A stretch of 64,000 nucleotides of DNA. It comes from a virus. The notes under the pieces are model-generated. The model ran no database searches. It was not told the DNA's origin and was given only the letters and a program-made list of their open reading frames with translations. This document shows positions 1 to 61,944 of the stretch, in pieces. The translations under genes and the position numbers were made by a program. Positions within the stretch are counted from its first letter, which is position 1; every line of letters begins with the position of its first letter. The stretch lies in IMG/VR virus record IMGVR_UViG_3300008116_000011, positions 64,001 to 128,000 of that record, one strand, 5' to 3'.

Positions 1-377
1 ACATTTGGTTGTATTCTCCAAGATGATACAACATATTTTCCATTATGTTTTCTTATTTCATTTAATAAATCTAAATCAAAGTCTTCAGCAACGTAGAAAT
101 CAGACTGCAGGAATATAATGTATTCTGTTTTTACTTTACTAGCACAGAAGTTCATTCCACCACCTATTCCTCTAGCTGGTTCAAAGTATGGTTCGATATA
201 GATTTCTAAATTATATTTATCTTTAACTTCTTCAAGCCATTCATTAGTACCATCCGTACAATTTTCGGCATGTACTATAAATGGAGCATCTTTAAAGTAA
301 GCATTTTGTCTTACAGATTTAATACACCATTTAAGATATTCTAAATTATTATATGTCGAAACTGTAAATGTTATCAT
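1..377 (-). CDS. GT2-family glycosyltransferase (partial, runs off the window)
   Basis: Not in the ORF track. ATG at 377 overlaps the TGA of the upstream ORF; translates MITFTVSTYNNLEYLKWCIKSV...HAENCTDGT, a GT2-type N-terminus. Confidence 0.75.
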   Translation of the reverse strand, partial: MITFTVSTYNNLEYLKWCIKSVRQNAYFKDAPFIVHAENCTDGTNEWLEEVKDKYNLEIYIEPYFEPARGIGGGMNFCASKVKTEYIIFLQSDFYVAEDFDLDLLNEIRKHNGKYVVSSWRIQPN

Positions 378-12736: not shown

Positions 12737-13648
12737 TTATTTGATTTTTAAGATTTGAGATATAAACGCCATAAAGTTAATTTCTTTATCAGCGATAGTA
12801 TTATTTTGCCATAGATATTGAGCTGAATGTATTGCTACGTCTGCAGGTTGGGTTGTGTATTCGCTTACACGTTCATATAAGCCTGTAAATAAAGGTACGT
12901 AATCATTTACATCTGCATCTGCTACTGTTTGTCTAATATCAGTCCAAGCTGTTTTACTCTTTAATTTTAAATGTTTTATAACATCATTTAAAACGCCCTC
13001 AACATTAGCTACTAATGCTCCTGGATTTAGAGTATTATTGTCATCTATTGATTGTTGAGATGCATTAATAATTTTTCTAATGTCAGGGTAGTATGTTTTA
13101 ACTATAGCAGCAATATTAGGTAATTCATATTTAACACCCTCTTGATCTAATATCCAGGCTAAATGTTTTGCAACATCACCTTTAGCAGGTGGTTCAATAT
13201 GAAATGTTTGACATCTACTTTTAAGCGGATCAATTATACGTTCAGCATAGTTAGCTGTAAGTATAAATCGTGTTTTTGCAGAATAAGTTTCCATTACATT
13301 ACGTAATGCTGCTTGTGCTTGAGCAGTAATATAATCGGCTTCATCAAGTATTACTACTTTAAGTGGATTAAAACTACTCACAGAGGCAAAATCTACAATT
13401 TTATCTCTAATAGTATCAATTCCTCTTTCATCAGAAGCGTTAATGTACATTATATCACACTTGATATTTTTTGTAATTAACTTAGCTAATGTTGTTTTAC
13501 CTGTACCCGGCTTTCCAAATAGTAATAGATGAGGAATATCATTTGTAGTGATACATTTAGAAATGAAGGCTTTTACACCCTCATTTCCAACGTATGTATC
13601 TAGATTTTGACTACGATATTTCTCAACCCATAGCGAGTTGTTCGTCAT
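12737..13648 (-). CDS. clamp loader AAA+ subunit (gp44/RFC)
   Basis: WVEKYR, GKPGTGKT, DEAD, SRC motifs. Confidence 0.95.
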   Translation of the reverse strand: MTNNSLWVEKYRSQNLDTYVGNEGVKAFISKCITTNDIPHLLLFGKPGTGKTTLAKLITKNIKCDIMYINASDERGIDTIRDKIVDFASVSSFNPLKVVILDEADYITAQAQAALRNVMETYSAKTRFILTANYAERIIDPLKSRCQTFHIEPPAKGDVAKHLAWILDQEGVKYELPNIAAIVKTYYPDIRKIINASQQSIDDNNTLNPGALVANVEGVLNDVIKHLKLKSKTAWTDIRQTVADADVNDYVPLFTGLYERVSEYTTQPADVAIHSAQYLWQNNTIADKEINFMAFISQILKIK

Positions 13649-15254
13649 TTTTATCTTTTTTAGGTTCGTTATAGATTACACATTCAGTTAACAATACAGT
13701 ACCTGCTACTGAAACGGCATTTTCAAGTGCTGTACGAGCTACTTTCATAGGATCGATAATACCTGCTTCAAACATATCTTTTATTGTTTCTGCTTTAATG
13801 TCGTATCCAAATGTACGGCCATTAGTTGGGTTTTCCTCTCTAGACTTCCTAAGAGCAAAGATAATTTCCTCTTTATTTTCAACACCCGCATTATCAAGAA
13901 TCTTAAGGAATGGAGCAGCACAAGCAATATATGCTATTCTCTTTCCTAAATTAAAATCTTCTCCATCTTCTTTCTTAAGTACGATATTTTCTCTTGCTTC
14001 TAGTAAAGCAATACCACCACCTGGGAGTAATCCTTCTTCAAGTGCTGCTTTAGTTGCTTGTAGAGCATCATCAATACGATCTTTCTTTTCTTTAATTTCA
14101 GTTTCTGTAGCTCCACCAATATTAATTACAGCAACTCCACCTACTAATTTTCCAAGACGCTCTTGTAAATGTTCTTTTTCGAACGCTGATTGTGCTTTTG
14201 CAATTTGTTCTTTTAGATCAGCAACACGATTTTGAATATCACCTTCTGCTCCACCACCATCTACAATTGTAGTTGTATCTTTAGTTACTGTTACTACTCT
14301 TGCTTTACCGAACCAATCTGAGTTGAAGCGCTCTAATTTCATTCCTTTCTCAGGTGAAATTACAGTACCACCAGTTACAGTTGCAATATCTTCAAGTACT
14401 GCTAAACGACGATCTCCAAAATCAGGTGCTTTAACAGCAACTGCTTTTAACATACCTCTCATTTTATTTACAATGAGTGTAGATAGTGCTTCACCATCAA
14501 TATCTTCAGCAATGATTAAAAGTGAACTATCTGTTTGTGAAGTACCCTCAAGTACTGGAAGTAGTTCTTTAACTGATGTTAATCGTCCGTTATAGATTAA
14601 AATCAATGGGTCTTTTAGAGCAGCAGACATTGTACTATTATCTGTTGTAAAATACATTGATTTATATCCCCTATCAAATTGAATACCTTCTACTGTTTCA
14701 AGTGATGTTTCACCTGTTTTACTTTCTTCAACAGTAACTACACCATCCATTCCTACCATATTCATGGCTTCAGCTACTAATGCTCCAATTTCTTCGTCAT
14801 TGTTAGCTGAGATAGTAGCTACTTGCTTAATTTGGTCTTCAGAATTAATTTCACGTTTAATTTCTTCTAAACCTTTAACTACTTCTTTAGCAGCCGCTTC
14901 AATACCTTTCTTTACTAATACTACGTTAGTATTAGGATTGATACTATGAAATGCTTTTTGAATTAATGAATTAGAAAGTACAGTTGATGTTGTTGTACCA
15001 TCACCTGCTTTATCTGCTGTTTTAATAGATGCTTGCTTAATCATTTGTGCACCTATATTTTCAATTGGATCTTCAAAATCCTTAAGTGTTTTTGCTACTG
15101 TAACACCATCTTTAGTACTGCGTACAGTTCCGTAGTCATCAATGAATACTACGTTGCGACCATAAGGTCCGAGTGTTGAGCTAACAGCATCAGCAACTTG
15201 CTTGATACCACTAGCTAATTTTTCTTTTGCTTCTTGATTGAATGCTGTCTTCAT
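13623..15254 (-). CDS. groEL: chaperonin GroEL
   Basis: TLGP, KDGVTVA, GDGTTT, FDRGY, GGG; full length. Confidence 0.97.
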
Positions 15255-15273
15255 ATTTTTGTTTTATATATTC

Positions 15274-15405
15274 TTAAAATACAGGAGCAAATCCCCTTTT
15301 TGTTTTATCACATTTTTCACATTTCCATAAAGCAAATGTACCATAAATGTGAACACAAGTCCATTTATGTTTACAAAATAAGGATTTGATATACTGTTTT
15401 ATCAT
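15274..15405 (-). CDS. 43-aa Cys/His-rich microprotein
   Basis: Not in the track. MIKQYIKSLFCKHKWTCVHIYGTFALWKCEKCDKTKRGFAPVF; TAATG overlap with the groES stop. Confidence 0.6.
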   Translation of the reverse strand: MIKQYIKSLFCKHKWTCVHIYGTFALWKCEKCDKTKRGFAPVF

Positions 15406-15695
15406 TAGTCATTAATTAATGCTAATACGTTTGCTTCTGACACTGCAATATATTCTACTCCTTCCCATTCTAGTTTAGTAGGTCCTACTTGAGGTAATAC
15501 TACTTTATCTCCTACTTTAAATGACATAGGGATACGAGCATCTCCTGCGTTGTTCCACCTTCCAGGTCCAACATCAATAATTGTTCCTACAATTGCTTTT
15601 TCTTGTGACAAATCGGGAATAATAAATTTGCCGTGCATTTTTTCTGTTTTTTCATCCACCTTTACAATGATGGCATCCCATACTGCTTTAATCAT
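15405..15695 (-). CDS. groES: co-chaperonin GroES
   Basis: IIPD, VGPG, KVGDKV, E..VLA. Confidence 0.9.
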   Translation of the reverse strand: MIKAVWDAIIVKVDEKTEKMHGKFIIPDLSQEKAIVGTIIDVGPGRWNNAGDARIPMSFKVGDKVVLPQVGPTKLEWEGVEYIAVSEANVLALIND

Positions 15696-15994
15696 AAGTT
15701 TAATGCTTGTTTAAAATTTTCAAGTGTTTGTTTATGTTCGTTTACGTACTCTCTAAAAGTGTAAGTACCTTTTTTATTTACCATACAATTACGAACTAAT
15801 GTATGTAATACGTTTTCAAGTGAATTATAATAACCAACTGCAGTCATATTATCATTATACCCGGGTTCCATTAGAGTATAACATGATTTGTCTTCATGTA
15901 TTTCATAAGGGGCAAAGATAGGGTCTTTAATAATAACAATGTCTTTAGTTTGGCCTTTTTGGCGTCCGCGACGCCCCTTAAATGGATCACTCAT
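15692..15994 (-). CDS. hypothetical protein
   Basis: ORF overlapping the groES start. Confidence 0.6.
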   Translation of the reverse strand: MSDPFKGRRGRQKGQTKDIVIIKDPIFAPYEIHEDKSCYTLMEPGYNDNMTAVGYYNSLENVLHTLVRNCMVNKKGTYTFREYVNEHKQTLENFKQALNL

Positions 15995-16026
15995 AACTTT
16001 TATTTTTGTTTATATATAAATGTATG

Positions 16027-16233
16027 TTATTCAATTGTGTTCTCCACATTTTCTTCGATAATCTCAACATCCATTATTTGTTCACAGAAGAATACTTTAC
16101 CATCCTTTTTAAATGTTTTATGTGATGGTGATAAAGCGTTCCAATCCGGCCCTAAAGGCTCATACTTTTCATCTAATATTGTTTTTACGATGAATAATTC
16201 ATCATTTACTCGTATCATTCCTTTACTAATCAT
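16027..16233 (-). CDS. hypothetical protein
   Basis: ORF in operon. Confidence 0.55.
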   Translation of the reverse strand: MISKGMIRVNDELFIVKTILDEKYEPLGPDWNALSPSHKTFKKDGKVFFCEQIMDVEIIEENVENTIE

Positions 16234-16970
16234 CCTACTTGAACTTCAGGTAAATAATAAACAGCGTTTCCTGTTTCTGTTTTGATATCTAATTTTAAAA
16301 GTCCTTGAGTGCTAATATATCCTTTTGCTTCTATCAAATCATCTTTACTAGCATTAAGTATTTCTTTTACATATGCTGAATTAAATGATAGGAATCCAAT
16401 ATGCATTTCATTAAATGAAGCCTCAGCTGTAAATTCAACTTTATTGGAGTGAGATGTGGGTTCGCCTAGTATTAGTTTAACTTGTTTATTTTGATCTTCA
16501 TTTACATTAGTAGATATTCTAAATACTTCTCTAATATTTGACCCTAGAGCTCCTTTTGCCTTAGCAAAACGCATAATAAACTCAGAATCAATACTAAATG
16601 TTATTTCGTATTCAGGTTCACTTATTGATGGGGTATTTTGAATAATAAATGGATCTGCTAATGAATATTGTAGTGAGAAATTAGAATCTTCAATTAACAA
16701 CTTAGTAGGTACTTTATGTTGTTTATCAACATTAACTAAAATATCCATATCTAGAATAGATAACATTTTAAGTAATCCACTTGTATTAAATATACCTAGT
16801 GTTCCATCTTCTAATTCAACATCACATTCAACATGTCCTACTAGATCCTGATTCGGAGATACAAAGTCAATATTTAATTTATTGTTTGCAACATTCCATT
16901 TAACACTTTCAACAGTGCCATTTAAGTAGTATCGCTCAATGTTTGCTACTAGGTCTAGTTTATTAATCAT
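16230..16970 (-). CDS. sliding clamp (gp45/PCNA-like)
   Basis: 246 aa beta-rich protein; GIFN...L..L, Y.LADP, C-terminal YYL; lies between PolB and the clamp loader. Confidence 0.7.
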   Translation of the reverse strand: MINKLDLVANIERYYLNGTVESVKWNVANNKLNIDFVSPNQDLVGHVECDVELEDGTLGIFNTSGLLKMLSILDMDILVNVDKQHKVPTKLLIEDSNFSLQYSLADPFIIQNTPSISEPEYEITFSIDSEFIMRFAKAKGALGSNIREVFRISTNVNEDQNKQVKLILGEPTSHSNKVEFTAEASFNEMHIGFLSFNSAYVKEILNASKDDLIEAKGYISTQGLLKLDIKTETGNAVYYLPEVQVG

Positions 16971-17167
16971 AATTTTTCAATTTCTTGTTTTACTTCTATC
17001 CAATATGGGAATCTATTTGCGAAGTCTGTTACTATTAATTCTTCAATTATCTCATCTACTGCTATTAATGCACATTTTTTAGCATAATATACATCAGCAT
17101 CGGTATGAAAGTTAAGATAATCAAACATTTTGTTTAGTAATTCTGCTGCTTTTTCTTGTGGTGTCAT
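16967..17167 (-). CDS. hypothetical phage protein
   Basis: MTPQEKA...AKKCALIAVDEII...YW.EVKQEIEKL; own promoter upstream. Confidence 0.6.
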   Translation of the reverse strand: MTPQEKAAELLNKMFDYLNFHTDADVYYAKKCALIAVDEIIEELIVTDFANRFPYWIEVKQEIEKL

Positions 17168-17171
17168 ATTA

Positions 17172-17203
17172 TAAAGGTAATAAGATTTATTAGTTTATCC
17201 AAA
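17172..17203 (-). promoter_or_regulatory. Bacteroidota-type promoter
   Basis: TTTG-N20-TACCTTTA. Confidence 0.65.
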
Positions 17204-19777
17204 TTTAAAGAATTTATTTATGGTATTGTTGAATATTGGTTTTCCCCATTTCAAATCCTCATATAGTGTTTCTAGTTTATTCTTTAACATTGAATCAAAT
17301 AATTGCACTTTGTCTAGGTATTTTTCAATGAATTCAGTAATAAATGGAGGATCATCATAACCGTTAAATCCAATTACGTCAATTCGATATGGATTATCTT
17401 TTAAATATGCTATAAACATTTTATCTCCAATCTGAAATGTATTGTGTTTTTTATCTAGTTTTTTAAATCGAAGTAAATCATTATAGTAAATAGCTGCTTT
17501 AGTATTGATAGGACATTTTAATTCCAATTTAGAGAATATTTCACCTGGTTGAGGTTTTGAAGCAATATATTCGCCTATGTTTTTTAATCCAGTAGGTTTA
17601 AGCAATAAACGCCAATCTACTGTGTTGATACTTTCTCTAAATGTAATAATCTGTTTGTCTATTTCTGGTTTAGGTTTACCAAACATAATGTCTTGAATTA
17701 GACCCTTTGCAAATTTTCTAAAGTAAGGAGCAAAGTTAGATTTCATCAAATCTAATCCTTTAATATCTAATTCCTCTACAGGCACACCTTCTTTATTTAC
17801 AATAAATTGAGCGTAACGTCTTTTACCTGCAAAGTATCCTCGTTCAAGTACAACCTCTTGCTTTAATTCAAAGTAATGAGGACGATCATGTAAATTAAAT
17901 AATTCTACTACTAATGTATTTAGATTTTCGTTTGCTACTTTTTGTATTTCAGTAGCAATTTCTAAAACATACTTTACAGCTTCTTCTCTATTATTAAGAT
18001 TTACATCAGGATATCTTTTTCGGATTAGATCCTTTACTTGGATAAATAACGAATCAGTATCTGATGTTACAATATAATCAATACCCTCAGTTTCCATTTG
18101 TTCATTCATCCATCTATTTACATATTTAATAGATTCCTGAGTTAAACGTTGCCCTGTAAGTGTAATTGCTTTTGAAACGAATTTATGTCCATCTGTATAG
18201 CGCCATCCATTAATAGCATAGCAACCATAAACGTCATTCAATTTAATTTTATATGCGTGTTGTCTACGATTATAGAATTCACCTTTAACAGCATCACCTG
18301 ACTTATATGCTTTTTTCATCAGGTTTTTATATTCAACACGTTTATTAAACCAGTCAGTTAATACATCACATACTATACTTGATCTGTCTTTTCGAAATAT
18401 AACACCAGGAGCAGATATAATCCAATTTTCCTGTTCAATTAATTTAATTATTTTTTCTACAGTTACAATTGAGCGTGAAATACTTTTATTTGGATTTATT
18501 CGCTCAATAGTAATTTCAGTATTTGGGTTTAATAATTTTAATTCTTTTAAAGACCATTGATTATCATATTTGTCTTTATTTACTATTCGTCCTATTAAAG
18601 TTTCAATCCCCATATTTAAGGAACGAATAATAGACGGATATAATGATGTAAAATCTAAATCAATAACCCACTCATATAATCCTGGTACTGGGTCTTTTAG
18701 GTATCCGCCAGCATATTCCTCTTTAATGTCTTTTAAATTAGGATTATAAGTTGTTGGTTTATTAGGTGAAATTACATTTTTACGTTTTAGATAAGTTAAA
18801 ATAGCGCCTTCATTTAATGTTGTAGACATATAAATTTGCTCATAAGGCACATGACACAGGTGGCAAATAATTACTGTTAGATCAATAAATTTAAGTTTAT
18901 CTTCAAGTGCAACTATAATTTCAACGTCTCTAATATTGTAATCAATAAACTTATTTATATCTTCTTTAAATAATTTATCTAATGAACCTAAATAATCTAC
19001 TTTGCCTAAATCAACATATTTTTCTCCAATATTACCTAAGGCATAAGATGGTTCTTGAGCTGTGATGTATTTTTTAAACAGCAACATATAGTCAAGGTGG
19101 TTTACACCTGCTATAGTAGTATATTTTTCTCCAGCAAATTCACCTTCATCTACTTGTTTTAATGGAGATAAACGTACAGCTTGGCTTTCACCTATTACTT
19201 TAGCAATACGATGATATAAGTAAGGAATATCAAAGAACTCACTATTCCACCCAGTTATAATTGTTGGATCTAATTCTTCCCATTTATCAAGGAACTTATA
19301 CATTAATTCCTTTTCTGTAAGGCAAGGTATTACTGTTTTATTTTCACTTGTAGATTCACTCATTGCCTTTGCTTCATCTAGAATGTAACAATAATACATT
19401 TTAGTACTATTGTCGTATAAAGCAATTGCTGTTAATTTACCTGCAGGGTCACGAACACTATCTTGGGTAAGCGCTCCTGCAATTTCACACTCAATATCTA
19501 GATAGACAATGTTTTGATATTCAGGTGTGTCGTCTTGTTCATAATAGGCATCTACTAATACACGAGTAAATTTATCAACATCACTTTCATAAGCATTAGA
19601 ATCTTTCCAATCATATTGTTTAGTTGGAGATACTTTAACGCCCTCTAATGTTTCATATTCACCTTTTTCATTTGCAACGTAGCAGGTAGCTCGATATGGA
19701 AATTCGAGCCACCCCTTTTTATCGTCACGTAGATGATATGTCTTTGTACTTCTGTTGTAATAAATTGCTTGATACAT
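17195..19777 (-). CDS. family B DNA polymerase (gp43-like)
   Basis: Exonuclease DIE, WNSEFFD, YNIRD; polymerase DFTSLYPS, K...N..YG, DTDS, KRRYA. Confidence 0.97.
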   Translation of the reverse strand: MYQAIYYNRSTKTYHLRDDKKGWLEFPYRATCYVANEKGEYETLEGVKVSPTKQYDWKDSNAYESDVDKFTRVLVDAYYEQDDTPEYQNIVYLDIECEIAGALTQDSVRDPAGKLTAIALYDNSTKMYYCYILDEAKAMSESTSENKTVIPCLTEKELMYKFLDKWEELDPTIITGWNSEFFDIPYLYHRIAKVIGESQAVRLSPLKQVDEGEFAGEKYTTIAGVNHLDYMLLFKKYITAQEPSYALGNIGEKYVDLGKVDYLGSLDKLFKEDINKFIDYNIRDVEIIVALEDKLKFIDLTVIICHLCHVPYEQIYMSTTLNEGAILTYLKRKNVISPNKPTTYNPNLKDIKEEYAGGYLKDPVPGLYEWVIDLDFTSLYPSIIRSLNMGIETLIGRIVNKDKYDNQWSLKELKLLNPNTEITIERINPNKSISRSIVTVEKIIKLIEQENWIISAPGVIFRKDRSSIVCDVLTDWFNKRVEYKNLMKKAYKSGDAVKGEFYNRRQHAYKIKLNDVYGCYAINGWRYTDGHKFVSKAITLTGQRLTQESIKYVNRWMNEQMETEGIDYIVTSDTDSLFIQVKDLIRKRYPDVNLNNREEAVKYVLEIATEIQKVANENLNTLVVELFNLHDRPHYFELKQEVVLERGYFAGKRRYAQFIVNKEGVPVEELDIKGLDLMKSNFAPYFRKFAKGLIQDIMFGKPKPEIDKQIITFRESINTVDWRLLLKPTGLKNIGEYIASKPQPGEIFSKLELKCPINTKAAIYYNDLLRFKKLDKKHNTFQIGDKMFIAYLKDNPYRIDVIGFNGYDDPPFITEFIEKYLDKVQLFDSMLKNKLETLYEDLKWGKPIFNNTINKFFKFG

Positions 19778-19803
19778 AACCTTTTAAATATACTAGGGTT
19801 TCT

Positions 19804-22218
19804 TTAATTTTCACGCCTTTCTTCTGGTTTATAGTAAATAATTCTATTATGCCAAACAGGTGCTGCTAATAATATAGCTGGTTTGATATGACCTCTCATT
19901 GTTTCTTGAAATATATAGGACATCCAGGTTTGTTCAAATGGATTTGCCCATTCTGTTTCTAGGAACATTTTATAATTACCTTTTTTATTTGCAATCATAG
20001 GCCAGTTAGCATAATAAATGTCACCAGTAGCATAAGATACTTCATTATGAACTTCAATTCTATCAAATTTAGTTCTGGGAGCATATGGGTCTAATCCTGA
20101 TACTGGTAATTGGTCATAGTCAGGCCATATATAACTTCTAACAGCTTGAGGAACATTATACCAAGATACTTGAATATTATTATCCATGTATACTTCTGTA
20201 TATGATAATTTAAGGAAATCAAATTCTTCCTTAGCCATTATTTCATGAACTTTGTCATATAGGTTAGGAACATATTTTCTAAATCCATTTCTACAGAAAC
20301 CAGTTTCAGTTGAAGGATATAACCCCATATCATCTTCAAAGAAGAAATAATAATCACTATCTGATTCATTGAAATGTTTTGCAGCAAATAGTCTTCCACC
20401 ATTAATTCCTTTGTTTTCATTCATAATGATGTGTTCAAAACCGTATTTGTCTGCTACTTCTTTATTAGTAATTCTAGCTTGTTCGTCTGTTGAGTTATCA
20501 ATTAGAATTTTTTTATGCGGTCTACTTAACCAATCAGGTGAATTTGCTTGCCATGTAGCTAAAGTATGTTCAATTTGTTGAGGAAAATTAAACGTTAACA
20601 TATATAGAGATGTTTTATCTGTATCTCTATTGTATAATCCTTTAGGCAAAACATGAGAGCGAGTACCATTATTTTCTAATTGTACTTGATCATCTAATAA
20701 TGCTTGTACAAATTTAACTACTAAACCATTATCATCTAAAGCATAACGTCTATAGATGTGAGGTTCTAAATGAGCCATAATACTAAAGATACTCTCTTCA
20801 GTGCCCATATATCCTGAATTTAGTGTATCTTGAAGTAAATTATAGTAGGTACCATTTGCTTGACTTAAAAAGTCTTTATGTCCACCAAATAATCCACCTC
20901 TACAAACATAAGTTACTTTTTCACGAGCATATCTGTTAATTGCTTTAAAGTCAAATCCATGAATTTCATCTGCGGCTTCATAGGGGTAACTTAGGAATAG
21001 GAATGTTTTTAGATACGGAATTATTTTATCTAGGCATCTATGCTCAGTAAAATATTTTTCATATACAGTATTTGTAATACCAGCATCAAGCCATAAGAAA
21101 TAATTAGTATCAAATACATTCATTACTTTAGCATCATGCAACATAAACATTTTTGATTGCACAATTGGGTTATACCACTCAAGTGATGCTTGAGGACTAC
21201 CAGGAAGCCATCCATGAGGACCTGTTTGATTCAACCAGTCAGGATTAGTTCTTATTTCTTGAGTTTTATCCCAAAATGGTTGATAGAAATTATTTTTAAT
21301 ACTTTCTAGTTCAAATGTTCTAACATAAGTGTTTTCAGGTTTACGTTTTTTCCATACTAGATATTCATATTCTTTAGGAATATAAATAAACATTTTAACT
21401 GGTATGTCTAGGAATTTATCAAAATTTTCAATGTAGTGGCTAAAATCTCTACCTGGGCGTCCTATGTTCCATAGCCCTGTTACTAGAGTTAAATCTTCAG
21501 TTAAATGTACTTCGGGAGTATTTTCAGATATTTTTACTTGTTCTCTTAGTTTATCTAGTTCATAAAATGCTAATCCTTTTCTAGTTCCTCCTTCATAATT
21601 GTCTACAATTGATTTTTCTTCAATATAAAGTTCAGGTTTAGGAAAATTAAAAGGTTCTGAATGTAGGCAGACAGGATAAAAAGCAGCTGCTCCTCTTTCC
21701 CAGTTTGCATCTACAGTTACAGTATTATCAGCATTAATATGTTTTTGAGAATAATTTTCATCGTTTAAATCATACCAAGTAGTAGTTAGAAGATATTTAC
21801 ATTTTGATTTTAAAATGTTATTTATTGCTTTACGTCCATCTTCTAAACTAAGATGTCCTAACACATCTCTTACAATCAATAAGTCAGCTTCAGGAATTTC
21901 AATATTGTCTTGAGTTAAATCAATTTCTTGAAATTTAATTATTGAATTAGCATACTTTTGGTTGTCTTGGATTAATTCAGGGACAATATCACATCCTGTG
22001 TAGCTTTCAAAACTATACACTATATCTTTCATCCAGTTAAAGTCACCACAAGGAATATCAACTACGGATTTAATCTCTTTGTCTTTAACTAATTGCTTAA
22101 TTTGTTGTCTAATAACTTCAGTTTCATCCATTGTGCTTCCAGGGCCACTTTTACTTTCAGGCCAACCTCCAAATCTCCAGTTTGTGTAAACATCTTGAAA
22201 AACCTCTTTTAAACTCAT
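19804..22218 (-). CDS. three-domain fusion: SAM methyltransferase + HtrL/YibB-like + GT2-like
   Basis: N-terminal SGPGS, DIPCGDFNW, RDVLGH; middle TLVTGLWNIGR, WLDAG, GGLFGG, GTEES; C-terminal IDNS, FFEDD. Confidence 0.7.
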   Translation of the reverse strand: MSLKEVFQDVYTNWRFGGWPESKSGPGSTMDETEVIRQQIKQLVKDKEIKSVVDIPCGDFNWMKDIVYSFESYTGCDIVPELIQDNQKYANSIIKFQEIDLTQDNIEIPEADLLIVRDVLGHLSLEDGRKAINNILKSKCKYLLTTTWYDLNDENYSQKHINADNTVTVDANWERGAAAFYPVCLHSEPFNFPKPELYIEEKSIVDNYEGGTRKGLAFYELDKLREQVKISENTPEVHLTEDLTLVTGLWNIGRPGRDFSHYIENFDKFLDIPVKMFIYIPKEYEYLVWKKRKPENTYVRTFELESIKNNFYQPFWDKTQEIRTNPDWLNQTGPHGWLPGSPQASLEWYNPIVQSKMFMLHDAKVMNVFDTNYFLWLDAGITNTVYEKYFTEHRCLDKIIPYLKTFLFLSYPYEAADEIHGFDFKAINRYAREKVTYVCRGGLFGGHKDFLSQANGTYYNLLQDTLNSGYMGTEESIFSIMAHLEPHIYRRYALDDNGLVVKFVQALLDDQVQLENNGTRSHVLPKGLYNRDTDKTSLYMLTFNFPQQIEHTLATWQANSPDWLSRPHKKILIDNSTDEQARITNKEVADKYGFEHIIMNENKGINGGRLFAAKHFNESDSDYYFFFEDDMGLYPSTETGFCRNGFRKYVPNLYDKVHEIMAKEEFDFLKLSYTEVYMDNNIQVSWYNVPQAVRSYIWPDYDQLPVSGLDPYAPRTKFDRIEVHNEVSYATGDIYYANWPMIANKKGNYKMFLETEWANPFEQTWMSYIFQETMRGHIKPAILLAAPVWHNRIIYYKPEERREN

Positions 22219-39434: not shown

Positions 39435-39647
39435 TTAGGCAGTTGGCAACTGGCTGTTTTTTACGCGGCGGCGTGAAATAGAATACATTGCATTTGCAAG
39501 TACTTCATTTACTGTTCTTTCTCCTGCTTTAACATAATTGATAAAACGGGTTGTGAAACCAGTAGTTTCAGCAAGGCGAGTAGTGTCACCTTTGCGTTCG
39601 CGAGCCATGTAAAATGCTAATTTCGCTGTGCGATTCAATTTACTCAT
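39435..39647 (-). CDS. small basic HTH (Cro/XRE-like) protein
   Basis: RLAETTGFTTRFINYVKAGER HTH pattern; monocistronic. Confidence 0.6.
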   Translation of the reverse strand: MSKLNRTAKLAFYMARERKGDTTRLAETTGFTTRFINYVKAGERTVNEVLANAMYSISRRRVKNSQLPTA

Positions 39648-39715: not shown

Positions 39716-39719
39716 AGAG

Positions 39720-39791
39720 TTGTTGTACCAAGATTCGAACTTAGTCTTTATGTTCCGGAAACATACGTGCTATCCCTTACACTATACAACA
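39720..39791 (-). tRNA. tRNA-Arg(CCG)
   Basis: Folded by hand: acceptor TGTTGTA/TACAACA, D arm GTGT/GCAC, anticodon arm TATGT-TTCCGGA-ACATA, T arm CTAAG-TTCGAAT-CTTGG, A73, no encoded CCA. Confidence 0.85.
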
Positions 39792-39795
39792 AAGG

Positions 39796-39830
39796 AATAA
39801 AAAAAGGGACTGATTAGGTCCCTTTTTATT
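39796..39830. terminator. bidirectional intrinsic terminator
   Basis: AAAAAGGGAC-N7-GTCCCTTTTT. Confidence 0.75.
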
Positions 39831-39923
39831 GAGTACACCTTTCGGTGGTTTGAACAACTCGCAAAGGGTTCTTTGTATAAGCTCAAACCAGGTTCTTTGT
39901 ATAAGCTCAAACCACGGAGTACT
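39831..39923 (-). ncRNA. candidate structured ncRNA segment
   Basis: AGTAC/GTACT closing stem, 11-bp GTGGTTTGAGC/GTTCAAACCAC stem, CACC-GAAA-GGTG tetraloop. Confidence 0.45.
39867..39914. repeat. perfect 24-bp tandem duplication
   Basis: GGTTCTTTGTATAAGCTCAAACCA x2 with no spacer. Confidence 0.95.
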
Positions 39924-39938
39924 TAAGTTTCCGAAGCT

Positions 39939-40013
39939 TGGAGCCACCAGTCAGGCTTGATCTGACACCTCTCCCGGTCGGAGTGGGAGGCTTCTACATT
40001 GAACTATGGCGGC
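39939..40013 (-). tRNA. atypical tRNA-like RNA (CCG-centred loop, U73, encoded CCA)
   Basis: GCCGCCA/TGGTGGC-T-CCA acceptor; CTCCC-ACTCCGACC-GGGAG anticodon arm; GTCAG-ATCAAGC-CTGAC T arm; no GG in the D loop. Confidence 0.7.
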
Positions 40014-40125
40014 GAGTATCTTTTAAAGGATACTCAAACCTGCCTTGCGACAGTTTATTCGAGTTGTCTGCTCTAGATAGCTATAAAAACCGATTTGGTC
40101 GGTAAGGATTGATCTATCTAGTCCC
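40014..40125 (-). ncRNA. candidate structured ncRNA segment
   Basis: CTAGATAG/CTATCTAG stem enclosing ACCGA/TCGGT, a GACA/TGTC hairpin, and a GAGTATC/GATACTC hairpin; downstream of TATTTATA at 40148-40155. Confidence 0.45.
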
Positions 40126-40162
40126 TTTGTTGTTTGCTTAGTGCGTATATAAATATATAATA

Positions 40163-40522
40163 TTATCCAAAAACAGCTACTCCTACTACAGTTCCTATAG
40201 AAGCACAAATTACAAATACTATTTGGTCTACTCTAGTTCCGTAAGTTACCCTTTGCACATTTAATGCAAATGAAATCCAGAAAAAGAAAGCTACAAAAAA
40301 TAGACCAATATCTGCTTGCATTGTTTCATTAGCCCATCTAGCACTAATATTACTTCTCATAAATGCATGAATAAATGCTGACATAAATGCTACTACAAAT
40401 GTAATAGGATTATAACTATTTACTTTAAGATACTCAGTAAATAATGATTTATTACCTTGTGTTAGTATCTTTTTTGCTTTTGGCTTTTTTCGAGGTTGTA
40501 ATTGATTATTTTCCATATTCAT
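40163..40522 (-). CDS. 3-TM hypothetical membrane protein
   Basis: Hydrophobic segments. Confidence 0.55.
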   Translation of the reverse strand: MNMENNQLQPRKKPKAKKILTQGNKSLFTEYLKVNSYNPITFVVAFMSAFIHAFMRSNISARWANETMQADIGLFFVAFFFWISFALNVQRVTYGTRVDQIVFVICASIGTVVGVAVFG

Positions 40523-57326: not shown

Positions 57327-59303
57327 TTATGGTACTATTTTTCCTTCAGGAATTTCTTTATTTCCATTTGCCGTAAATATATCAGTAAGCCATTTATTTT
57401 CCTTCTCTACTCTATCAACAGTAAATGCGGGGAGATTAGCCCAATCCCCTGGAATATTGCTAAATTTATTTGGAAATTTGCGAGGTAAGAAATCATGCAC
57501 AGGAGTAAATGTCATTTGCACAGTCATTACATGAGGTAATTCATACATATTAACACCAGCACCTCCTTCAGGATCATCTATTGCTATTTCCCAAGGTGAC
57601 TTATCATCTATAGTATAAGTTAAATTTTTAATAATTCCTGGTTGGCGATACATGTAATTACCCATAGTGAGTTTCATATATGGTCCTCTCATATTTATGC
57701 CATCATAATCGGGCATTGTGTTTGAGTATAAATAATTTAACTTTTGCCACATCGGTTTCATTTCAGCTTCAGACATTGCTGCTACTTGAAATGTAAATGA
57801 AACATTTCTTTCAAATCCTTTATAGATATAAAAGGGTTCTCCTCTACCTACATAATTCACAGTATTCCAAGTTGGATTAGGATTATCAGATATACTTGTT
57901 AAATAAGATCTAAATATCATCCATGTACTAAGTCCTGGATTAGTTCCATCAACAGCCTCTATTCTAAATTTAATAAGGTCTCTTACGGTAAAGCTCTTTC
58001 CATTTACATTTATTTTGGTATTTGGAGGAGCACCACTTATATATAAAGGGGTAAGGTTAATTTGATCTTGTCTAGGATATTCTGAGTCTGTAGGATTATA
58101 TCCTAATCGTCTTTCAATATTGAATTGTTCTAATGGTAAACCCTTATCAGCATATGACCCTGTTGTAGGTTTATATTTTGAAAATCCTTTAAATGTAAAT
58201 GTTATAGGCCTATCTAAATAGCCTTGGCGGCTTATAGTGCCAGGACCTACTATATCATTATTTGCTTTAACTATATTAGCTGTTCCTATAGCAAAACTTC
58301 CGGTTTGTTGGTTAATTGCATTTATTAAATTATTATAAAGTTTACCTGCCTCTGGGTAATTTATAGCATTTTGATCAATCTGGGAGGGTTTATGTGTGAG
58401 AGAACCAGTAGTTATATTATTATACTCTAAAATTTGATCTCGATTCCAATCAAAATACTCTTCAGAAACACCTTGTGCTAAAAAATAATCAATATCAGGA
58501 ATAGGACGTCTAAATTTAGAAGCCATATTAGAAAGTGATACAACACGAGCTGTACCTGTGTCTACAAGATTAGCAGTAAACCCAGGAAGGGAAGCATCAA
58601 TAGGTAAAACTCTACGTCCACCACCATATTGATTATATTGTTGATTTCCTAATGTATTATAATATCTTGGTATAGTAGTTCGTCCTATACCATCAATAGA
58701 TCCAGGACCGCTAACATATTGATTAATATTAACAGTAGTATTATTACCTGCTGCTACTAATTTATCTTTTAATAATACTAATCTATTATTAGCTCCATTA
58801 GAACCACGAGCATCATTAGCAACTACTACATTTTTATATAATTGACCTTCATTTAATACCGGTAATAAACCATGTCTAGTAATGTGACCACCAAACGCTG
58901 TAATTGGTACTTGAGCTAATGTATTGATACCTAAATTATAGATACGAGTAGGACCTATTTTACCTAATAGTTGTCCTAAAGCATCTGTTCTAGTTTCAAG
59001 TTGAGGATTTGATAATTGTAATCCTACTTGTTTTGCTATAAATAAAGGTCCACGAGGTGGATCAACAAGAAATTTTCCAATACGGAGAGTATCACGAGCA
59101 GAAGCTAGTGTAGCACCAGCAAAACCACCTCTGATTAAACCATTATCTGAGTTCCATATAGTTGTAGATGGAACTTGTTGTTGGTATGGTGGTGGTATTT
59201 TTGTAGTAATATATGGCTCACCACTACTACCTCCTCCTGGTTGATCATTTCCGTATTTAAGACCTCTTAATGCAGTTAATCCAGCTTGTGTAATTATTGG
59301 CAT
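57327..59303 (-). CDS. baseplate / tail-tube initiator protein (gp48/gp54-like C-terminal domain)
   Basis: W....YVGRGEP.Y.Y.GF.R...F.F, LT.G, PG.I..L. Confidence 0.6.
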   Translation of the reverse strand: MPIITQAGLTALRGLKYGNDQPGGGSSGEPYITTKIPPPYQQQVPSTTIWNSDNGLIRGGFAGATLASARDTLRIGKFLVDPPRGPLFIAKQVGLQLSNPQLETRTDALGQLLGKIGPTRIYNLGINTLAQVPITAFGGHITRHGLLPVLNEGQLYKNVVVANDARGSNGANNRLVLLKDKLVAAGNNTTVNINQYVSGPGSIDGIGRTTIPRYYNTLGNQQYNQYGGGRRVLPIDASLPGFTANLVDTGTARVVSLSNMASKFRRPIPDIDYFLAQGVSEEYFDWNRDQILEYNNITTGSLTHKPSQIDQNAINYPEAGKLYNNLINAINQQTGSFAIGTANIVKANNDIVGPGTISRQGYLDRPITFTFKGFSKYKPTTGSYADKGLPLEQFNIERRLGYNPTDSEYPRQDQINLTPLYISGAPPNTKINVNGKSFTVRDLIKFRIEAVDGTNPGLSTWMIFRSYLTSISDNPNPTWNTVNYVGRGEPFYIYKGFERNVSFTFQVAAMSEAEMKPMWQKLNYLYSNTMPDYDGINMRGPYMKLTMGNYMYRQPGIIKNLTYTIDDKSPWEIAIDDPEGGAGVNMYELPHVMTVQMTFTPVHDFLPRKFPNKFSNIPGDWANLPAFTVDRVEKENKWLTDIFTANGNKEIPEGKIVP

Positions 59304-59578
59304 TATCTAGGTAGATTGTCTGTGTATTTTTTTCCAGCTTGGTTTCTATAAGTACTTGTATTCAAAGCATCTTCAGAATCGAGTGCTGTTGGGGCAGGCT
59401 TTGGTGGAACAAACCCAGCACCAACACCATTAATGTTAGGATTTCCGTCAAGAGAGTAAGTATCATGACGTGATCCTGGAGGATTTGGGTTAACCTTAGA
59501 CATCCTATTAGATGGTACAGGACCACCTCCCCAGCCTAATTTGCTTACGCCGCCAAATAATAAATTAAGTAATCCCAT
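59303..59578 (-). CDS. Pro/Gly-rich hypothetical structural-module protein
   Basis: TATTTATA upstream; coupled to the next gene. Confidence 0.55.
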   Translation of the reverse strand: MGLLNLLFGGVSKLGWGGGPVPSNRMSKVNPNPPGSRHDTYSLDGNPNINGVGAGFVPPKPAPTALDSEDALNTSTYRNQAGKKYTDNLPR

Positions 59579-59613
59579 ATTTGTTGTATTTTATATTTGA
59601 TATAAATATTAAA

Positions 59614-61944
59614 TTATGGTAAATTGGTACCAAACATCATTTGAGCTGTGCCTACTTGTTGAATATCAACACCAGCTACAAGTTTCTTATTGACAAATTT
59701 ACCAGTATTTTCTCTAGTAGCACGCAGTTCATTACGCATATCTGTAAATAGTTTTATCATTTCTGAATTGTCTTGGGCAGCGGCCGTTTGTCTATTAGAA
59801 TTACTAATAATATCTTGTAGATCACTTAATGGAGCAATAACTTCAGGATTGTTTGCAGCACCAGAATATTCACCAACAATAGCGTTTGTTTTCCCATATA
59901 CTAAACCACCATTTGCAAATTCAGTAGCATCTTCAGCATTATTCATAGCAGAAGCAATTACACCTACAGCAGTTGCTAAAGCAGCTACTCCTAAAATTAA
60001 GTTTACTGGGTTTAAAAAAGCACTAGTGGCTGCTCCTGCTATTGCTGCTACTCTTAATTGGGCACTCATTAGAGCAATACTACTAACAGTTCTAGCTAGT
60101 GAAAGACCAGCTATTGCTGTTAATACTCCATATAAAACCCCAGTATTACTAGCTATAGAAGCTATAATATCAGCCATTGTTCCTAAAGGACCACCAACAA
60201 GTCTAGCAACAATATCTTGCATTTTTTCCATTGCAAGATTAAATCTATCTTGTGCATTTATTGCTTCTAATCTTTTAGCTACCTCATCACCAGCCAATGC
60301 CCTAACTTCTTCTGTTGATTTATTTAAGTATTGTTGTTTTAATAATTGATCAGATAGTGTATCTGATGTTGTTCCTAAAGCAGCTGCTATTTTATCTTGA
60401 GCAATAACATTCATGTTAGAAAACTTATTAAAATCAATATTTTGATTATTAAGTTCTTTCATTACTGTTGTCATATCACCCATTAAAGCTGCTGTTCTAG
60501 CTCTTTCTAGGTTTAATTGTTGACCAGTTAATAACTCAGCTTGTAATTCATTTTCAATTGATGTTTCAAAATCAAGTAAAGCAGATGCTTGTTTTCTTGT
60601 ATTATCAAGAGTAGTACCTAATAATTTAGCTTGTGCTACCGCTTGTGTTAAGGCAGGAACACTACCTTTAAACATTGCTAAGGTTTGCCCAGATATTTTA
60701 CCTACTTCTTCAAGTACTTCTTTTTGATTTAACTGAATACCATATTGTGAAGATAAATTTTGTGTTGTTTCAAAAGCAATGTTTTTAGATTCTTTTAATG
60801 TTTTACCAGATGCAATAGAAAGTTTTGCTAAACCACCAGCTGCTTCTTCACTTAATCCAATTTGTTTAGTTAATAGAACAAATTGAGAATTTAAGTCATC
60901 TGTAAATTTAGAAGAAAATCCTAATTGTTCACCTAATTTAGCATTAGCTTCTACTAAACGATTAGTATTAAGAGCAACATTTCCTGATTCAACAGCCATT
61001 CTATTGAATTCCTGTCTTACAGTATATGCTTCTTCTCTACTTAATACTAAATTCTTTTGTAATCTAGTTACTTGATCTGAAACTTCTAATGCTACTTTTT
61101 TTAGGTAAGTAAAAATAGTAGTTAAAGATAATGTATTGTGGATATTATCTTTTATTCTTTTTCCTATACCCTCAATTTCATCTTTAAACTTTTTAGCACT
61201 ACTATTTTGTTCTTTTAAAGCTCCAGATAAAGCTTCATTTTTTAAAATTTGTTCCTCTATTAGTTTTAATAATTCTCTATAAAAATCAACTATTTTATCT
61301 GTTTCTTCTTTTTCTTTCTTTTTTTGAATTAAATTCTTTTCATTTAAAGATTGAGTTTTTTCTATAGTATTTATAGAAATATTATTATCTTTTATTCTTT
61401 CTCTAAGTGATTCTTGTTGTGCTTTAGCAAAATCTTTTTGTGTTGTGTTATTAGCATTGTTATAAGCTTCAGTTGCTCTTTCTAACTGTTGTGTTAAATC
61501 AAGTTGATCTTCTAATCGCTCAGTATAACGTGCTCTTATAGCTATTCCTTCGTCTTCTAATTTTTTTACATCCTCTTGTAATTTACTTTGAAGAGATTTA
61601 GCTTGGTTTATTTTGCTATTTTCGTTTTGTTCTTCTTTAGCATATTCGTTTTTTAAACGAGCAAGTGTCTCTAATTGTTTATCAATGTCTATTTGCTTTA
61701 ATTTTCCTGCATATAGCTTATCTGATAGTTTAAGAGTATTAGTAAGTGCTCTGCCTATTTCTTTAGTGCCATCTATTAATTTTCTATCTTCTACATTAAC
61801 TCCTCCTAATCTTTTAGCAAAAGTTTGAATATTATCAGAAAGTACCCTAGATAAACTAATGGATTCTCTAAGAGAATCATTGTACTCAGCTAATCGTTCT
61901 TGAGCACTTCTTATATCTTTTTCATTAGGTGTATTATCAGCCAT
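59614..61944 (-). CDS. tape measure protein
   Basis: Long helical/coiled-coil protein with an Ala-rich hydrophobic region, FANGGLV..GE...PEVI.PL; follows the tail chaperone. Confidence 0.8.
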   Translation of the reverse strand: MADNTPNEKDIRSAQERLAEYNDSLRESISLSRVLSDNIQTFAKRLGGVNVEDRKLIDGTKEIGRALTNTLKLSDKLYAGKLKQIDIDKQLETLARLKNEYAKEEQNENSKINQAKSLQSKLQEDVKKLEDEGIAIRARYTERLEDQLDLTQQLERATEAYNNANNTTQKDFAKAQQESLRERIKDNNISINTIEKTQSLNEKNLIQKKKEKEETDKIVDFYRELLKLIEEQILKNEALSGALKEQNSSAKKFKDEIEGIGKRIKDNIHNTLSLTTIFTYLKKVALEVSDQVTRLQKNLVLSREEAYTVRQEFNRMAVESGNVALNTNRLVEANAKLGEQLGFSSKFTDDLNSQFVLLTKQIGLSEEAAGGLAKLSIASGKTLKESKNIAFETTQNLSSQYGIQLNQKEVLEEVGKISGQTLAMFKGSVPALTQAVAQAKLLGTTLDNTRKQASALLDFETSIENELQAELLTGQQLNLERARTAALMGDMTTVMKELNNQNIDFNKFSNMNVIAQDKIAAALGTTSDTLSDQLLKQQYLNKSTEEVRALAGDEVAKRLEAINAQDRFNLAMEKMQDIVARLVGGPLGTMADIIASIASNTGVLYGVLTAIAGLSLARTVSSIALMSAQLRVAAIAGAATSAFLNPVNLILGVAALATAVGVIASAMNNAEDATEFANGGLVYGKTNAIVGEYSGAANNPEVIAPLSDLQDIISNSNRQTAAAQDNSEMIKLFTDMRNELRATRENTGKFVNKKLVAGVDIQQVGTAQMMFGTNLP

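Follow-up and report, generated by a model that had tools for sequence, protein, structure and literature searches.

The window analysed here is a stretch of 64,000 nucleotides (nt) from a phage genome (positions 64,001 to 128,000 of the IMG/VR record IMGVR_UViG_3300008116_000011), and the element in question is an odd transfer RNA (tRNA)-like sequence with a CCG anticodon on its minus strand, at 39939-40013, which an initial annotation had described as an aberrant, CCA-ending RNA. The description that fits this element best is a tRNA-like module within a larger phage RNA. More specifically, the comparisons below indicate that it is the middle domain of a pseudoknotted RNA running from a putative promoter to a predicted terminator and not a free-standing gene, and that it is being selected and is not decaying, as judged from covariation and from an evolution slower than that of the genuine tRNA beside it. 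The larger RNA, of about 340 nt, is a previously undescribed structured phage RNA that is absent from Rfam.

The locus and its relatives

Read along the minus strand, the locus begins with the gene of a DUF1761-like membrane protein of 119 amino acids (aa) (40163..40522; the Pfam DUF1761 match is weak and below cut-off). Directly after the stop codon of this gene stands the promoter-like motif ATATTTATATA (40146..40156), which is conserved upstream of the RNA in relatives and whose core, TATTTATA, has 55 copies on the gene-rich minus strand of the genome and 14 on the plus strand; we infer a promoter function for ATATTTATATA. A non-coding unit then extends from about 40140 to 39799, with a folding z-score of -5.3 for the whole RNA, and closes with an intrinsic terminator, a hairpin followed by a U7 tract (39799..39827; terminator scan), several stem pairs of which covary. 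Beyond it lies a canonical tRNA-Arg(CCG) (39719..39791; ARAGORN; Rfam 56.4 bits), 150 nt downstream of the odd element and on the same strand, with GG in its D loop, A73 and the T loop UUCGANU. The promoter scan returned no promoter-like site between the terminator and this tRNA, which must therefore arise by read-through of the same transcript. A coding potential of the open reading frames (ORFs) that overlap the unit was rejected: homologues differ by indels of 1, 2 and 23 nt, and since these lengths are not multiples of three, no reading frame is conserved.

Relatives were found by exact-pattern scans and by look-ups through the upstream membrane protein. This gave 19 freshwater-phage loci with the complete region and 17 distinct variants of the 72-nt tRNA-like domain, all of them on metagenomic phage contigs, and the larger RNA was aligned in 16 sequences, including the window, for consensus folding and pair counts. 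Two sets of scan hits were kept apart from the true loci, namely 13 chance matches (L005-L018) to the 16-mer GTTCAATGTAGAAGCC and a 17-mer match (L052), also due to chance, in a GC-rich coding region. In every contig that extends far enough the order is the same: the membrane-protein gene, directly followed by a ATATTTATA-type motif and a non-coding stretch of ~320-370 nt with the odd element in its middle, then a terminator and tRNA-Arg(CCG). The membrane protein measures 112-125 aa across relatives (81 homologue clusters, 61-88% identity), and its gene lies directly upstream of the RNA even where the surroundings differ: the module stands, among other places, in a Que cluster, beside a holin gene, or before genes for heme oxygenase and bilin reductase. 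The genuine tRNA-Arg(CCG) follows the RNA in 19 of 19 complete loci, with many compensatory changes, and in all of them the CCG anticodon is common to it and to the odd element.

Sequence and fold of the tRNA-like domain

The domain itself comprises 72 nt (39942..40013, minus strand), supported by Rfam, ARAGORN and covariation, and ends at the discriminator U73; the CCA that follows in the sequence of this genome (39939..39941) falls within a linker of variable length. The acceptor stem has 7 base pairs (bp), GCCGCCA/UGGUGGC, consisting of G1-C72, C2-G71, C3-G70, G4.U69 and three more. The D loop has 6 nt, AAUGUA, without GG, the anticodon region reads CUCCC-ACUCCGACC-GGGAG, and the T stem GUCAG/CUGAC carries the T loop AUCAAGC, with A54. 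In all of these particulars (the acceptor, anticodon and T stems, both loops, U73 and the CCA) the initial annotation had read the letters correctly.

The Rfam tRNA model (RF00005) gives the domain 35.0 bits, above its gathering cut-off of 29 (E ~1e-5 in a local search), and ARAGORN misses it at its default threshold and reports tRNA-Arg(ccg) at 95% (-ps95) and lower thresholds. Both programs give the anticodon arm a 7-nt loop, CUCCGAC, and a 5-bp stem that ends in A.C at 31-39, and there is an extra pair, C26-G44. The canonical core is intact (U8-A14, A15-U48, C13-G22 with G46, A9 with U12-A23, and U33), and U33 is accompanied by Y32 and R37. The proposal that tertiary motifs have been lost is thus right for G18G19 and for T54/A58, whereas U8, A9, A14, A15-U48, C13-G22-G46, U33, U55, C56 and R57 are all kept without variation. 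Folded in isolation, the 75 nt have an unremarkable z-score of -1.6, and for this reason the case for the domain rests on comparison with relatives. The minimum free energy (MFE) fold of the isolated 75 nt, which pairs the anticodon arm in an alternative way, was rejected since it conflicts with a compensatory change at 28-42. Searched with a covariance model of the element, the genome yields no second copy.

Conservation of the domain

The 17 variants align without gaps, and 95.2% of the cloverleaf cells are paired. Changes on both sides are seen in three pairs, namely 7-66 (A-U, G-C or G.U), 28-42 (C-G or U-A) and 52-62 (A-U or G-C). As a control, none of 500 shuffles reaches the observed covariation score, and sliding the partners against each other drops pairing to 28-54%. 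The A31.C39 mismatch, present in 16 of 17 variants, is replaced in locus L035 by A-U, with the adjacent pair weakened to U.G; this is expected of a stem position and therefore speaks against a 9-nt anticodon loop. Between the two loops that had been put forward, the 7-nt form is favoured by this change together with Rfam and ARAGORN, and the 9-nt form is disfavoured.

With a mean pairwise identity of 91% and 55 of 72 columns invariant, the domain is the most conserved part of the locus, ahead of the 5′ domain of the RNA (86%; 85 of 155 columns), its 3′ domain (83%; 42 of 101), the genuine tRNA-Arg (82%; 35 of 75), the membrane-protein gene (73%; 126 of 343) and the terminator region (67%; 13 of 79). 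Invariant positions include 1-6 of the acceptor stem, U73, the whole D arm (the loop AAUGUA lacks G18G19 in 17 of 17 variants), the variable loop, U33-C34-C35-G36-A37-C38, U55 and C56, while position 32 is C or U and position 57 is always a purine. T-loop positions 54 and 58-60, on the other hand, are free: there are nine T loops among the 17 variants, all four bases occur at both 54 and 58, and the two are combined as A/A, C/C, C/U, U/G, G/U or A/U. In the same loci the T loop of the neighbouring tRNA-Arg, UUCGANU, varies only at 59, and its GGAU(U)A D loop (with G18G19) and A73 are kept. Selection on the stems with a relaxed elbow, as first suggested from a single sequence, is therefore borne out by the compensatory changes and the range of T loops. 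The contrary expectation, that relatives would carry a canonical tRNA here and that only this copy had decayed, does not agree with the alignment, because the relatives carry the same aberrant element and it evolves more slowly than tRNA-Arg.

The encoded CCA, which the initial annotation had pointed out, is found only in the window, in the L025 group and in L047, L034 and L038; the other loci have U-CUA or U-CA before the invariant AGCUUCGG, such that the linker after U73 varies in length between CCA(A), CUA and CA. Judged by this distribution, the CCA is incidental and not a conserved feature.

Architecture of the larger RNA

The 5′ segment of the RNA, ACAACAAAGGGAC (40121..40133), is invariant in 16 of 16 aligned sequences and is followed by hairpin H1, CUAGAUAG/CUAUCUAG (40073..40121), paired in 100% of cells with one-sided (G.U) changes only. 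H1 encloses an inner hairpin, ACCGA-CCAAA-UCGGU followed by U5, which the terminator scan flagged as terminator-like. The contig of locus L044 ends (1253-1286) in the Illumina adapter AGATCGGAAGAGC..., joined inside the H1 hairpin, and this is an assembly artefact. Next comes the 5′ strand of helix P1, ACAACUCG (40060..40067), whose partner CGAGUUGU lies at 39854-39861; the helix appears in both the MFE and the consensus folds and is paired in 16 of 16 sequences, although it is so nearly invariant that covariation speaks neither for nor against it. P1 encloses two hairpins and the tRNA-like domain. Hairpin H2 (40040..40053), CUGUC-GCAA-GGCAG, has an invariant stem and a GNRA tetraloop, and a 34-nt insertion in L019 falls exactly in that loop. 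Hairpin H3 (40014..40035), GAGUAUC/GAUACUC, has two compensatory pairs (U-A to C-G or A-U, and C-G to U-A) and a loop that differs by 1-3 nt in length, and its 3′ strand abuts G1 of the tRNA-like domain with zero spacer.

On the other side of the domain, a nearly invariant box, AGCUUCGGA(A/G)AC (39927..39938), contains AGCUUCGGA in identical form in 16 of 16 sequences; it holds UCGGA, complementary to the UCCGA of a CCG anticodon loop, which makes this a candidate pairing. The 5′ strand of a further helix, Px, follows as GUGGUUUGA (39907..39915). Its partner, UCAAACCAC (39845-39853), lies beyond the 3′ strand of P1, and hence Px crosses P1 and forms a pseudoknot, with the P1 and Px partners arranged as one continuous 3′ strand, CGAGUUGU-UCAAACCAC (39845..39861). 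Px is identified by covariation: two of its pairs are changed on both sides in L019 and L039 (G-C to A-U, U-A to C-G), and 97% of cells are paired. The copy in this genome has a 23-nt tandem duplication, GGUUUGAGCUUAUACAAAGAACC / GGTTTGAGCTTATACAAAGAACC (39867..39913), which duplicates the Px 5′ strand; the 15 other aligned sequences have a single copy of the unit. Hairpin H6, CACC-GAAA-GGUG (39836..39847), is kept in relatives with other sequences and lengths, being short here and longer there, with loops such as GGAA, GUAA, UUUU and longer ones; it shares CAC with the Px 3′ strand, and the boundary between H6 and Px is therefore uncertain. Throughout the RNA, insertions fall in loops or linkers only.

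Two further pairings were considered. A helix proposed by RNAalifold just after the domain (AGCU.CGGA with UCCG.UGGU) was rejected in preference for Px, with which it competes, as it shows wobble-only changes and several broken cells. A candidate pseudoknot of CCUU(A/G)C with GCAAGG is seen with G-C, A.C and one A-U; it would occupy part of the H2 stem, however, and the insertion in L019 disrupts it. When the ~340-nt RNA was compared with Rfam, only tRNA matches passed and all others fell far below their cut-offs.

Links between the RNA and the genuine tRNA-Arg

Besides the shared anticodon and the shared transcript, there is a possible link by base pairing. The leader and 5′ acceptor strand of tRNA-Arg, CCUUUGUUGU (39784-39795), have a complement in the invariant 5′ segment of the RNA, ACAACAAAGG, and this pair is unique in the 174-kb genome. 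The 5′ acceptor strand of tRNA-Arg is invariant in 19 of 19 loci, with the 3′ strand shifting to wobble partners, as would be expected if the 5′ strand were under a second constraint. The segment ACAACAAAGGGAC is, in addition, complementary to the internal CCCUUUG (39862-39868) and to the 3′ arm of the terminator. A role of the 5′ end as an antiterminator directed against that arm was considered and is not supported: the 9 bp are perfect in the window, but in L003, L025, L030 and L035 the terminator arms change and the 5′ AAAGGGAC does not, leaving only AAAGGG(A) complementary. A transcription attenuator may be regarded as possible, and not as more than that.

As a separate observation on the genuine tRNA, the canonical tRNA-Arg(CCG) of L003 (4693-4765) has C33 (loop UCCCGGU), and that of the close relative L046 has the usual U33.

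Synthetase identity and CGG codons

In Escherichia coli, arginyl-tRNA synthetase (ArgRS) identity depends on A20, A/G73, C35 and G/U36, and threonyl-tRNA synthetase (ThrRS) identity on G1-C72, C2-G71, G35 and U36. Against the former set, the domain has C35 and G36, as part of its invariant CCG anticodon, whereas U73 is invariant and position 20 is deleted in the Rfam alignment, so that A20 and A/G73 are both lacking, as had been pointed out at the outset. Against the latter, the acceptor pairs agree, whereas positions 35-36 are C and G and do not. By these rules the domain carries no complete synthetase identity set. When the genome is searched with R1, a covariance model of the domain, the next match is tRNA-Thr(UGU) at 46.5 bits, and tRNA-Arg is unmatched. 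The acceptor stem and discriminator are nearly the same in the domain (GCCGCCA/UGGUGGC-U) and in tRNA-Thr(UGU) (GCCACCU/AGGUGGC-U; record 58474-58547), which suggests a chimeric or Thr-derived origin.

CGG is a rare codon in this phage, with 17 occurrences among the 52,399 codons of its long ORFs, and 14 of the 17 lie in two giant ORFs outside the window (record 13257-20307 and 130081-135271, minus strand), so that a reader of CGG matters for their products. These are Pro-rich proteins of 2350 and 1730 aa with about 31% Thr, and they are probably virion proteins. Thirteen of the 14 codons stand at the variable first position of X-T-(I/V)-T-P hexapeptide-like repeats, as PT-R-T(I/V). CGG was also considered as a programmed recoding site, for which no evidence was found in these repeats, where AGA is the prevailing codon for the R of this PT-R-T motif.

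Possible roles of the domain

The reading that we favour, and hold tentatively at somewhat less than even confidence, is that the domain may be a non-decoding mimic of tRNA-Arg(CCG) that acts within the larger RNA as a decoy or a sensor. It is favoured because the anticodon loop, D arm, core and acceptor end are fixed, the T loop varies freely and the synthetase identity sets are each incomplete, and because the flanks are conserved and knotted around the domain and a normal tRNA with the same anticodon is co-transcribed. What such a domain would present is an invariant CCG anticodon loop, D arm and core, together with an acceptor end of tRNA-Thr type that carries U73. Elbow-dependent partners (the ribosome, T-loop modification enzymes and perhaps RNase P) probably do not read it, given the free T loop and the absence of G18G19, and the partner would instead be a protein or RNA that recognises tRNA-Arg(CCG) through its anticodon arm. 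As a decoy, the domain would soak up a host anticodon nuclease. As a sensor, it would be bound by a synthetase or a processing enzyme, and this binding would tune termination, read-through and the maturation of tRNA-Arg(CCG), the output of which would be needed for the 17 CGG codons of the phage.

Several points weigh against this view. The core, U33, Y32, the purine at 37, U55-C56-R57 and an invariant anticodon are also kept by a working tRNA, and an A54.A58 combination occurs in eukaryotic initiator tRNAs. The homologues are all fairly close, the tRNA-like domain being at least 82% identical among them and most of its positions never varying; its covariation rests on three pairs; and the complementary invariant segments vary too little to show which pairings form. 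In addition, the identity rules are those of E. coli and may not hold in the host of this phage, and the decoy and sensor versions are indistinguishable on the present comparison.

A narrower form of the idea, which we regard as a long shot, is that the RNA would represent a new class of ornate phage RNA, whose in-cis tRNA mimic (acceptor end as in tRNA-Thr, CCG anticodon as in tRNA-Arg) would sense, or compete for, a factor specific to tRNA-Arg(CCG) and would in this way gate both the read-through of the terminator and the maturation of the co-transcribed tRNA-Arg(CCG). If this were true, a tRNA-shaped sensor would control a tRNA gene and thereby time the translation of the CGG-containing giant Thr/Pro-rich proteins. 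Even bolder is a variant in which the domain would be charged with threonine and would recode CGG.

Among the rival explanations, a released but unusual tRNA survives best, and we consider it rather unlikely. Here RNase P and RNase Z or exonucleases would excise the domain, the host would add CCA where needed, and the product would be charged and read CGG, inserting arginine or possibly another residue such as threonine. The full cloverleaf, the core pairs, U33, Y32 and R37, the CCG anticodon, U55-C56-R57, the compensatory changes and the absence of indels are all what such a tRNA would show; the Rfam score exceeds its cut-off, and the acceptor stem and U73 nearly match those of the phage tRNA-Thr. 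The 13 CGG codons stand at a variable position of Thr-rich repeats, where a substitution would be tolerable. Yet with a canonical tRNA-Arg(CCG) only 150 nt away, another decoder of CGG as arginine would be redundant, one that inserts a different residue would leave the codon ambiguous, and the prevalence of AGA in the PT-R-T motif implies that arginine is the intended residue there. Furthermore, positions 54 and 58 are unconstrained and G18G19 is absent, the A20 and A/G73 of ArgRS and the G35-U36 of ThrRS are missing by the E. coli rules, a hairpin lies flush against the 5′ end so that there is no single-stranded leader, and the flanks are conserved like the domain and are tied together by P1 and Px.

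The tRNA shape could alternatively serve as a processing or folding scaffold only, recruiting RNase P and RNase Z with no role for the anticodon, so that cutting would free the flanking RNAs or help to mature tRNA-Arg, comparable to mascRNA in MALAT1 or the tRNA-like units of MHV68. The domain has conserved, structured flanks on either side and shares its transcription unit with a tRNA; this arrangement, the variable-length linker after U73 and the relaxed elbow would all suit a scaffold. What makes it improbable is that the pattern of constraint runs the other way: the anticodon loop (YUCCGAC) and the D arm are invariant, constraint is weakest in the T loop, the part used by RNase P, and in every locus the co-transcribed tRNA has the same anticodon. 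For a cleavage handle alone, such features would be unnecessary.

That the domain might donate its amino acid to a non-ribosomal reaction, as the initial annotation had proposed for a modification pathway, is in our estimation very improbable. The model for such a donor is the staphylococcal non-proteinogenic tRNA-Gly of cell-wall bridges, which has lost G18G19 and the T-psi-C consensus with its stems preserved, and the losses seen here parallel this. However, the staphylococcal tRNA is free and charged, has a full GlyRS identity set and works with a Fem transferase, neither of which is evident for the phage domain. Among the genes of the phage, no homologue of the aminoacyl-tRNA-dependent transferases FemAB, L/F-transferase, ATE (ATE_C) or MprF-C (LPG_synthase_C) was found, although a partner encoded by the host remains conceivable; the neighbours of the module other than the small membrane protein differ between relatives, and there is the lack of a complete synthetase identity set. 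Least credible of all is a decaying duplicate tRNA gene or, as also once suggested, a frameshift-promoting tRNA with a 9-nt anticodon loop, for although the default ARAGORN run rejects the element and the loop can be drawn with 9 nt, the identity across loci is 91% against 73% for the adjacent protein gene, the changes are compensatory and without indels, and the A.C to A-U change with a weakened adjacent pair in L035 is what a stem position would show.

Comparison with known RNAs

Look-alikes of tRNA with non-decoding jobs are few and include the transfer-messenger RNA (tmRNA), Y RNAs, viral tRNA-like structures and the tRNA-Other of Bacillus cereus. The last is a pseudo-tRNA within a larger regulatory RNA (PMC3399842). 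Like the phage domain, it has a tRNA shape unfit for translation, is expressed in a longer RNA that extends on both sides, and has been proposed as a tRNA-like structural module (PMC3399842). It differs in being chromosomal and iron-regulated, in flanking a genomic island, in having no sequence relation to the phage element and in not being followed by a tRNA with the same anticodon, and the phage RNA, unlike tRNA-Other, is a defined promoter-to-terminator unit with pseudoknots.

GOLLD and ROOL are, similarly, large structured RNAs of phages and prophages that lie beside tRNA genes, and in some GOLLD RNAs a linker region holds tRNAs that are covalently joined to the rest (bioRxiv 10.1101/2024.12.08.627333; PMC5737381). 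They are 580-800+ nt long with ordinary embedded tRNAs, in contrast to a ~340-nt RNA with an aberrant tRNA domain, and their Rfam models gave no match to the phage RNA even at E values up to 10. Both are still of unknown function. The non-coding YrlA RNA, a bacterial Y RNA, also has a module that mimics the D, T and acceptor arms of tRNA and does not serve decoding (PMC4201824), but this mimic is permuted, has no anticodon loop and works with Ro60 (Rsr). A reading of the phage RNA as a Y RNA finds no TROVE or RtcB gene in the phage and no Rfam match.

With respect to a decoy, phage tRNAs are known to counter defences that target tRNAs, for instance the T5 tRNA-Lys against PARIS (PMC11464382), in the evasion of retrons (PMC11555353) and through anticodon-loop variants (PMC10264068). 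The likeness lies in a tRNA-type RNA with altered surroundings of the anticodon loop, whose value would come from conflict with host nucleases and not from codon supply. Those tRNAs, however, are functional and chargeable and replace cleaved host tRNAs, whereas the candidate described here is embedded in a larger RNA, appears to have no complete synthetase identity set, and next to it lies a normal tRNA with the same anticodon.

If the domain is a decoy or a sensor, it would join the phage tRNAs that act in counter-defence with the ornate phage RNAs, and it would offer a tractable model for the reuse of the tRNA shape: in a compact RNA of ~340 nt, conservation is highest in the tRNA-shaped domain, whose anticodon recurs in a co-transcribed tRNA. 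Its fixed parts (the anticodon loop, D arm, core and acceptor end) stand against the free T-loop positions (54 and 58-60), and this division predicts which surfaces matter to a partner. A parallel by description only is given by the stable RNA species 1 and 2 of phage T4, which are small RNAs of 120-140 nt with tRNA-like ends, lie in a tRNA cluster and are co-transcribed with tRNAs, have no full internal cloverleaf and are not known to have a function.

Genomic context and further observations

The phage record that contains the window has 174,437 bp, terminal repeats and a G+C content of 32%. By its family B polymerase (PolB), the nearest cultured phage is Microcystis phage Mel-JY01, at only 35% identity, and the covariance model R1 finds no match in Mel-JY01. 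Searches of the cultured phage collection by blastn with the region and by tblastn with the membrane protein gave no match, and the anchor pattern was likewise not matched in bacterial genome contigs, which thus provide no clue to a host or a prophage. No genes for a CCA-adding enzyme, RtcB or Ro60 (TROVE) were found in the phage.

The genes around the element in the window include QueE-, QueC- and QueD-like genes of 7-deazaguanine metabolism, a neighbourhood that is not kept in relatives. Just after tRNA-Arg lies the gene of a 70-aa basic protein (39435-39647), which is kept (70-78 aa) in those relatives that have the module in a Que cluster and is absent in others. In L047 (1089-2214), genes for a heme oxygenase and a ferredoxin-dependent bilin reductase come after the RNA/tRNA-Arg module; such auxiliary genes are typical of phages of phototrophs or aquatic bacteria.

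Run on the whole genome, ARAGORN reports tRNA-Leu(UAA), tRNA-Thr(UGU), a tmRNA and tRNA-Arg(CCG). Another promoter motif, ATATATTTATATA, lies downstream of the tRNA-Leu/Thr pair (record ~58055-58070; L048 ~150-270, minus strand), and the stretch after it is GC-richer and apparently non-coding, with no Rfam match above cut-off and no obvious likeness to the RNA studied here. The tmRNA is located about 4.3 kb before the start of the window, at record positions 59339-59726 on the minus strand (locus L048 1538-1927), with a TATTTATA motif just upstream. It scores 56.8 bits with Rfam RF00023 against a cut-off of 47, and the tag that ARAGORN predicts for it is unusually long, at 23 residues.

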